NCBI RefSeq assembly: GCF_003334765.1
Contig: NZ_QOWT01000092.1
Source of the DNA: Escherichia coli
Lineage (GTDB): Bacteria > Pseudomonadota > Gammaproteobacteria > Enterobacterales > Enterobacteriaceae
Direction: 5' to 3' (one strand)
Length of the DNA: 951 nt
Part shown: positions 8 through 789 of the stretch, piece by piece
How positions within the stretch are numbered: the stretch's first letter is position 1
Layout of the letters: every line of letters starts with the position of its first letter
Translations under genes and position numbers: made by a program
The notes under the pieces: model-generated
The model's database searches: none
Told to the model about the DNA's origin: nothing
Seen by the model: the letters and a program-made list of their open reading frames with translations, nothing else

Positions 8-358
8 TTACAACATTGTCAGTGAGTTAAGGCGGGATGTTTTTGGCTGACGCCAGTCCAGCTTATCGAGGAGCATTGCCAGTTGCGAGCGGGTAATGGA
101 TATCTTACCGTCACGCACCGCAGGCCAGATAAACTGACCTTCCTCAAGGCGTTTGGTGAACAGGCACAGACCATCAGCATCAGCCCACAGGATTTTAATC
201 GTGTCTCCCCGTCGGCCACGGAAGATAAACAGGTGACCGGAGAAGGGGTTATCATCCAGCACATGCTGTATCTGCTCCCCCAGACCGTTGAAGGATTTAC
301 GCATATCAGTAACGCCGGCAACGAGCCAGATACGGGTACCTGATGGGAGTGAAATCAT
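8..358 (-). CDS. tnpB: IS66-family accessory protein TnpB (IS66 Orf2-like), 116 aa
   Basis: The ORF 8..358 translates to MISLPSGTRIWLVAGVTDMRKSFNGLGEQ...GHLFIFRGRRGDTIKILWADADGLCLFTKRLEEGQFIWP, recognised from memory as the conserved IS66 Orf2-like TnpB signature. Start ATG is the complement of 356..358 and stop TAA the complement of 8..10. A strong Shine-Dalgarno GGAGG (complement of 364..368) sits 5 nt upstream of the ATG. Confidence 0.9.
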   Translation of the reverse strand: MISLPSGTRIWLVAGVTDMRKSFNGLGEQIQHVLDDNPFSGHLFIFRGRRGDTIKILWADADGLCLFTKRLEEGQFIWPAVRDGKISITRSQLAMLLDKLDWRQPKTSRLNSLTML

Positions 359-789
359 CGTCCCCTCCCGGTCAGCTCACGGATCAACACCGTGAGCAGC
401 TCTGGTGAAGGATTTTCCAGCATCATTTTACCGTAATGGAATTCCACATGGCAGGAAGCTGCACAAGCAACTGATAATGCCTCCGGAGCAGGAGCATCTG
501 TAGCACAGCGCGGGGTGTCGATAAGTTCCACTGGAACCAGAGTCGGAGAGGCCGGAAAAGATTGTGATACTGTAGGGCCTACAATAGTTGGAGGCATTCT
601 ACGAGAAATACGTCCTTCTCTTTGCCAGAGGCGTAGCCATTTAAAAATCAGGTTGTTATCAACGCCATGTTCCCGGGCCAGTTGTGCAACATTGGCATTT
701 GGTTTCGAAGCCAGTTCAACCATATGAAGTTTAAATTCATTAGAAAATATCCGGCGGGTTCCGGAGCGCCAGTCTGTAGGTTTATCCAT
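355..789 (-). CDS. tnpA: IS66-family accessory protein TnpA (orfA, predicted helix-turn-helix DNA-binding protein), about 144 aa
   Basis: The translation MDKPTDWRSGTRRIFSNEFKLHMVELASKPNANVAQLAREHGVDNNLIFKWLRLWQREG has the N-terminal HTH-like region typical of IS66 TnpA. I place the start at the ATG that is the complement of 787..789, because GGAG (complement of 798..801) lies 8 nt upstream. The ORF track begins one codon earlier at a TTG (790..792), which leaves no spacer after the SD. Stop TGA is the complement of 355..357 and overlaps the tnpB ATG. Confidence 0.85.
   Translation of the reverse strand: MDKPTDWRSGTRRIFSNEFKLHMVELASKPNANVAQLAREHGVDNNLIFKWLRLWQREGRISRRMPPTIVGPTVSQSFPASPTLVPVELIDTPRCATDAPAPEALSVACAASCHVEFHYGKMMLENPSPELLTVLIRELTGRGR
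364..368 (-). promoter_or_regulatory. Shine-Dalgarno site for tnpB, embedded in the 3' end of tnpA
   Basis: Minus-strand GGAGG followed by a 5 nt spacer and then the tnpB ATG. Together with the ATGA overlap this suggests translational coupling. Confidence 0.55.

Follow-up and report, generated by a model that had tools for sequence, protein, structure and literature searches.

What protein is encoded by the small reading frame at one end of a 951 nt stretch of Escherichia coli DNA (RefSeq assembly GCF_003334765.1, contig NZ_QOWT01000092.1), and what might that protein contribute to the insertion sequence (IS) in which its gene lies? The whole of this 951 nt stretch is referred to here as the window. 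An earlier note on the window had reported, at 8-358 and with no strand given, a complete copy of the IS66 Orf2-like protein TnpB, 116 amino acids (aa) in length and without a premature stop. The open reading frame (ORF) listing confirms this and places tnpB on the minus strand at 8-358, with its ATG at 356-358 and its TAA at 8-10. There are no internal stops and the reading frame is intact over the 116 aa.

Identity of the tnpB gene

The hidden Markov model search proposed in the earlier note was against the Pfam family PF05717 (TnpB_IS66), an accession that proves to be the right one. The tnpB product matches this model with an expect value (E) of 3.5e-36, over residues 9-106 and model positions 2-100 of 101, and it is the only Pfam match of the protein at E up to 10. 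With the NCBIfam equivalog NF033819 (IS66_TnpB), for which the curated cut-off is 50, the score is 119.1 bits. In E. coli 042 the gene is annotated as tnpB. All of the family residues are present (G15, T17, D18, R20, L26, F44, F46, K55, G63, L66, K69, R70, F76, W78, and P79); residue 22 is S, the residue at this position being G in most family members. Based on the Pfam and NCBIfam matches and on the ratio of non-synonymous to synonymous substitutions (dN/dS) reported below, this ORF is far beyond chance. It is practically certain that the gene is the tnpB of an IS66-family insertion sequence resembling ISEc43.

An identical 116 aa sequence has already been catalogued in NCBI, UniRef, ENA, and JGI, on 131 contigs, with the public name ‘IS66 family insertion sequence element accessory protein TnpB’. 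The view taken in the earlier note, that this is a known unknown rather than a new system, holds in every part that could be checked. The feature is known and catalogued, and it is an ordinary copy of a very common gene. A 115 aa PF05717 protein (P0201) carries the name ‘isocitrate lyase’ at NCBI.

Taken as a whole, this identity and the mechanism proposed below, in which TnpB would be a non-catalytic subunit that binds nucleic acid and partner proteins, are together considered to be the best explanation of the locus, with a probability of roughly 85 %. That figure applies to the explanation as a whole; the mechanistic part is put forward with far more reserve.

Conservation of tnpB across the IS66 family

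The ISEc43-like element carries tnpA, tnpB, and tnpC between GTAAGCGT termini, with TnpC being the DDE transposase. Compared with sister copies (dS 0.17-1.0), tnpB has a dN/dS of 0.04-0.14 and, judged by these ratios, is under strong purifying selection. The family contains 12,955 clusters at 50 % identity with E of 1e-3 or better. Matches are present in 4,052 of 5,426 complete E. coli genomes, approximately three-quarters, and in at least 5,000 plasmid records.

The homologue search with a distant seed, tblastn of plasmids, and the related loci on viral contigs gave close relatives only, the diversity coming instead from phage records. A sample of 14 divergent members with 28-55 % identity was taken from these (of Leptospira, Streptococcus, Pseudomonas, and human-gut origin). 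PF05717 is matched by all 14, and in 13 of the 14 loci there is a small upstream ORF that overlaps or abuts the tnpB start. Seven of the eight upstream ORFs that were scanned match IS66 TnpA models, six of them above the curated cut-off, and all six of the downstream ORFs tested match the IS66 transposase model, five above cut-off. The order tnpA-tnpB-tnpC holds down to approximately 30 % identity. Gene order and overlap have both been kept in divergent loci; the three-gene unit tnpA-tnpB-tnpC, together with its coupling, is therefore of ancient origin and has been conserved. TnpA-TnpB fusions were found in four of 150 cluster representatives. Two publications, both citing Han 2001, describe three translationally coupled ORFs with TnpC as the transposase (PMC3469429, PMC6778807).

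A different arrangement is seen in Streptococcus phage phiStag1 (L088 2995-4827), where no tnpA is adjacent and the transposase is split, with its leucine-zipper part as a separate small ORF. This fits a remark on Bacilli by Gomez et al., 2014 (PMC3971601).

Predicted fold and proposed role of TnpB

Two AlphaFold2 models, one from a shallow alignment and one from a diverse alignment, share one topology, with mean predicted local distance difference test (pLDDT) scores of 77 and 85.5, respectively. The predicted order of elements is beta1(10-16)-alpha1(23-33)-beta2(43-47)-beta3(53-60)-beta4(63-70)-beta5(85-88)-alpha2(90-97). As modelled, TnpB would be one compact basic domain with a disordered tail from about residue 104; the isoelectric point is 9.7 over the full length, and the core alone has 9.0. 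Residues L26, F46, K55, G63, and K69 are invariant even when the divergent members are included, and at least 90 % of sequences share G15, T17, D18, R20, F44, L66, R70, F76, W78, P79, and L96. In the predicted fold, G15, T17, D18, and R20 are in the beta1-alpha1 loop, K55 is in beta3, K69 and R70 are at the end of beta4, and F76, W78, and P79 are in the loop that comes next.

The mechanism preferred here, tentatively and with the odds still somewhat against it, is that TnpB binds nucleic acid and partner proteins and is itself non-catalytic. TnpB would be a subunit of a TnpA-TnpB-TnpC transposition complex, with translational coupling setting its amount relative to TnpA. Nucleic acid, be it the IS end, the target DNA, or a base that is flipped or unpaired, would be held by the patch of conserved basic and aromatic residues, and contact with TnpC and/or TnpA would be made elsewhere on the surface of TnpB. 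TnpB would thereby license productive assembly of the transpososome, with the DNA chemistry being performed by TnpC. Transposition of IS679 is reported to have needed tnpA, tnpB, and tnpC, and the transposition assay with a tnpB deletion that the earlier note had proposed has reportedly already been done for that element.

The best structural neighbours of the TnpB model are nucleic-acid readers with PUA-like folds. This resemblance is reproducible; it agrees with a role in binding nucleic acid without proving it, and is best treated as a weak lead. The PUA-like readers concerned (YTH, which reads N6-methylated adenine, m6A, in RNA; EVE/THYN1, which reads 5-methylcytosine in DNA; ASCH; and the McrB N-terminal domain) have 4-12 % sequence identity to TnpB, which is 30-60 residues shorter than such domains; it is a matter of resemblance and not of membership. 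Pfam matches to PUA-like reader families were found in none of 40 members, with one member matching the PUA-type TruB_C at E 0.08.

Several results weigh against the proposed mechanism. Structure prediction and structural search, as suggested in the earlier note, assigned TnpB to no characterised family, Foldseek against the PDB giving no match below E 0.1. Sequence and profile searches of the PDB with TnpB also gave no match, and hhalign comparison of the family profile with the E. coli ASCH protein YqfB returned a probability of 0.6 %. A full-text literature search yielded no biochemical or structural study of IS66 TnpB, which bears out the statement in the earlier note that its biochemical role is not established. 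Furthermore, the ISBst12 group of the IS66 family, whose elements have a single ORF, transposes without tnpB (PMC12898284). TnpB is therefore accessory and outside the catalytic core, a DDE enzyme needing no such partner in principle. Lastly, in the closest complete genomes this copy of tnpB sits in a damaged element.

State of this copy

This damage raises the possibility that the copy in the window is a relic, that is, an intact ORF within an element unable to move alone. This is quite conceivable, at a little under an even chance, and would be compatible with any function of the family. The window is identical at 950 of 951 bases to E. coli 042, 55989, and the O104:H4 outbreak strains, and the other complete genomes among the matches listed are at 99.9 % too. 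The sole difference from 042, at window position 25, gives the TnpB of the window S113 where that of 042 has A113, within the disordered tail at the C-terminus. In 042 (L001 1887-5874), tnpC begins 30 nt past the tnpB stop in what is annotated as ‘IS66-like element ISEc43 family’, and this cognate tnpC has been cut by ISEc45, of the IS110 family. A matching 8 bp duplication is absent at the 042 copy (TAATAGTC versus CCATAGAG). The 042 locus lies within another element of the IS66 family, with IS3 and IS110 fragments around it and the pic autotransporter gene next to it. In the best-matching genomes beyond 042, the match extends over the full window and across the junction at 874/875 where the element meets its flank; among these best matches, the annotation around tnpC was inspected in 042 only. 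In another near-identical copy (L002), tnpC is split.

On the other side, tnpC of the source copy lies outside the window. A sister copy on an IMG/VR contig (L008) is identical to the IS part of the window at 871 of 874 bases, so that only three differ, and its TnpB differs from that of the window at two of 116 residues. The L008 element is complete at 2,541 bp, with GTAAGCGT at both ends, an 8 bp target duplication, AGGTAGGT, and an intact TnpC of 537 aa that scores 447 bits to NF033517. Being complete and flanked by a duplication, it indicates that the lineage has therefore been mobile recently. In addition, the TnpB of an element that cannot move alone could still act in trans.

Alternative roles for TnpB

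The main rival to a nucleic-acid-binding TnpB is one that would bind protein only, regulating TnpC or serving as its assembly chaperone, and would itself make no contact with nucleic acid. It could, for example, bind the leucine-zipper or zinc-finger N-terminal region of TnpC and so control its multimerisation or stability. TnpB is a small protein in which Pfam, NCBIfam, and PADLOC detect no DNA-binding or enzymatic motif, and it always adjoins tnpC and is coupled to tnpA. That the ISBst12-group transposases work alone also suggests a modulator rather than a core part. However, the conserved residues are mostly basic or aromatic and are in loops (R20, K55, K69, R70, F76, and W78), a pattern seen more often at a ligand or nucleic-acid site than at a protein interface, and the nearest structural neighbours read nucleic acid. 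Neither observation is decisive, and a chaperone of this kind is rather unlikely without being far-fetched.

On another reading, TnpB would be a stripped-down PUA-like pocket domain with a fold akin to those of the YTH, EVE, and ASCH base readers. At the IS end or in the target, it would recognise a base that is flipped, unpaired, or modified, and would so gate the time and place of TnpC action. Given in this detail, the proposal is improbable. If it were true, a defined and testable biochemical role would be gained for an uncharacterised IS gene that is among the most abundant. Reading of the m6A made by Dam at the IS ends was rejected; there is no GATC within approximately 130 bp of either end, and the element has eight GATC against 9.8 expected.

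The sequence QLAMLL at residues 92-97, of the form QLxxLL, resembles a beta-sliding-clamp motif (QL[SD]LF or QLxLxL), through which TnpB might act as a tether to the replisome. Gomez et al., 2014 (PMC3971601) note this motif in some IS66 TnpBs and show that peptides of the IS66a TnpC bind the clamp; the peptides tested there are from TnpC only. Residues Q92, L93, and L96 are conserved among proteobacterial members, but most of the divergent members have E, D, T, R, or K in place of Q92, so that the motif does not extend to the whole family. Position 4 is M instead of the strongly conserved L, and the segment 90-97 is predicted to be a helix packed on the domain (pLDDT approximately 80-90), not a flexible tail. 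The TnpC of L008 has a closer match, QLSLV, near its N-terminus. A clamp-binding role for TnpB is very unlikely.

Hardly any weight is given to TnpB as a small enzyme in which catalysis would depend on T17, D18, K55, and K69, for instance a hydrolase or nuclease of the ASCH kind with a nucleic-acid base or strand as its substrate. The DDE transposase already explains the chemistry, there is no match to a Pfam or NCBIfam enzyme family, no ASCH GxKxxExR signature is visible by eye, and the 0.6 % probability against YqfB, on which ASCH membership was also rejected, speaks against it.

Two further candidates were discarded. SH2-like domains are the top Foldseek matches, but with template modelling scores (TM-scores) of 0.3-0.4 and E above 0.1. 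SH2 domains have an invariant phosphate-binding arginine on the central strand, in a FLVRES-like motif. The corresponding residue here would be R47, in the sequence FRG; 12 of the 14 divergent members have C, Y, F, or I at this position, and this reading was rejected because R47 is not conserved. A role in anti-phage defence was set aside, there being no PADLOC match.

Organisation of the element within the window

On the minus strand, the TGA stop of tnpA (355-357) and the ATG start of tnpB (356-358) overlap in an ATGA at 355-358 which, as read from the sequence and the ORF listing, is the translational-coupling junction of the two genes. A Shine-Dalgarno-like GGGAGGGG, read from the sequence on the same strand at 362-369, lies within the final part of tnpA, with 3 nt between it and the downstream tnpB ATG.

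The tnpA gene (355-789, minus strand) encodes a 144 aa helix-turn-helix accessory protein. Its annotated start is the ATG at 787-789, the ORF listing starting one codon earlier at TTG 790-792. The product matches the Pfam family HTH_Tnp_1 (PF01527) with E 2.8e-10. It also matches two IS66 TnpA models of NCBIfam, at 68 and 63 bits, which is under their cut-offs of 74 and 150, and because both scores are below cut-off the gene is labelled merely ‘transposase’ by RefSeq and in 042. The ISEc43-type TnpA appears to be poorly covered by the current models.

Between the tnpA start and the IS terminus, a repeat search found two exact copies of a 10 nt direct repeat, TCTAATTTAG, at 803-812 and 820-829, 17 nt apart from start to start. 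These repeats may be a sub-terminal binding site for TnpA or TnpC, or a promoter element. A promoter and terminator scan gave counts no higher than in shuffled sequence. The left terminal inverted repeat is at 835-874 on the minus strand, with the terminal GTAAGCGT at 867-874 and the end of the element at 874. This is a terminus typical of the family, of the GTAAGCG type.

Beyond this end, 875-951 on the plus strand belongs to another, older transposase gene of the IS66 family, of which it is a C-terminal fragment with the translation IEADIRGMPAEQRLAERQRKTKPLL; the 042 annotation for it reads ‘IS66 family transposase, missing N-terminus’. The older flanking element has its own GTAAGCG terminal repeat at L001 6322-6366, the flank in 042 being L001 5877-6366. 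As the flank is a fragment of a different IS66 transposase, this IS has therefore inserted into an older relative.

Significance and comparison with known systems

As a feature of the genome, this tnpB is of minor importance, being a further copy of an IS gene already on record. At the level of the family, there is a wider gap: approximately 13,000 clusters, under purifying selection and always beside the IS66 transposase, have a role without known biochemistry. To this, the present analysis adds a set of family-wide residues for mutation (T17, D18, R20, K55, K69, R70, F76, and W78) and a reproducible but weak structural lead to nucleic-acid base-reader folds. It also adds that neither the beta-clamp motif nor the SH2-like site holds family-wide.

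The TnpB of IS200/IS605 elements has the gene name alone in common with the TnpB of the window. The IS200/IS605 protein is an RNA-guided nuclease of approximately 400 aa with RuvC and zinc-ribbon domains, and is the ancestor of Cas12. The protein investigated here has 116 aa and no match to a RuvC or zinc-ribbon domain in Pfam at E up to 10. The RefSeq gene note likewise separates the two, and the earlier note was correct in calling them unrelated. The shared name has consequences for annotation; in Pseudomonas phage Marin (OR683406.1; L093 3001-3345), a homologue of the IS66 TnpB is mislabelled ‘transposon-associated TnpB endonuclease’ because of it.

Closer parallels in genetic arrangement are IstB of IS21, MuB of Mu, and TnsC of Tn7. 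Like TnpB, each is encoded by a separate gene that adjoins the DDE transposase gene and is needed alongside it. IstB, MuB, and TnsC are AAA+ ATPases of 250 aa or more. TnpB is unlike them in having no Walker A motif in its 116 residues and no match to an NTPase family in Pfam or NCBIfam.

The closest comparison is with the IS66-family TnpB proteins themselves. Copies of the ISEc8 TnpB in Shiga toxin (Stx) phages have 65 % identity to the TnpB of the window. With the TnpB proteins of IS66, IS679, ISEc8, and ISEc43, the window copy shares the same profile scores, size, and conserved residues, the same position between tnpA and tnpC, the ATGA coupling, the 8 bp duplication present at the sister copy, and the GTAAGCGT termini.
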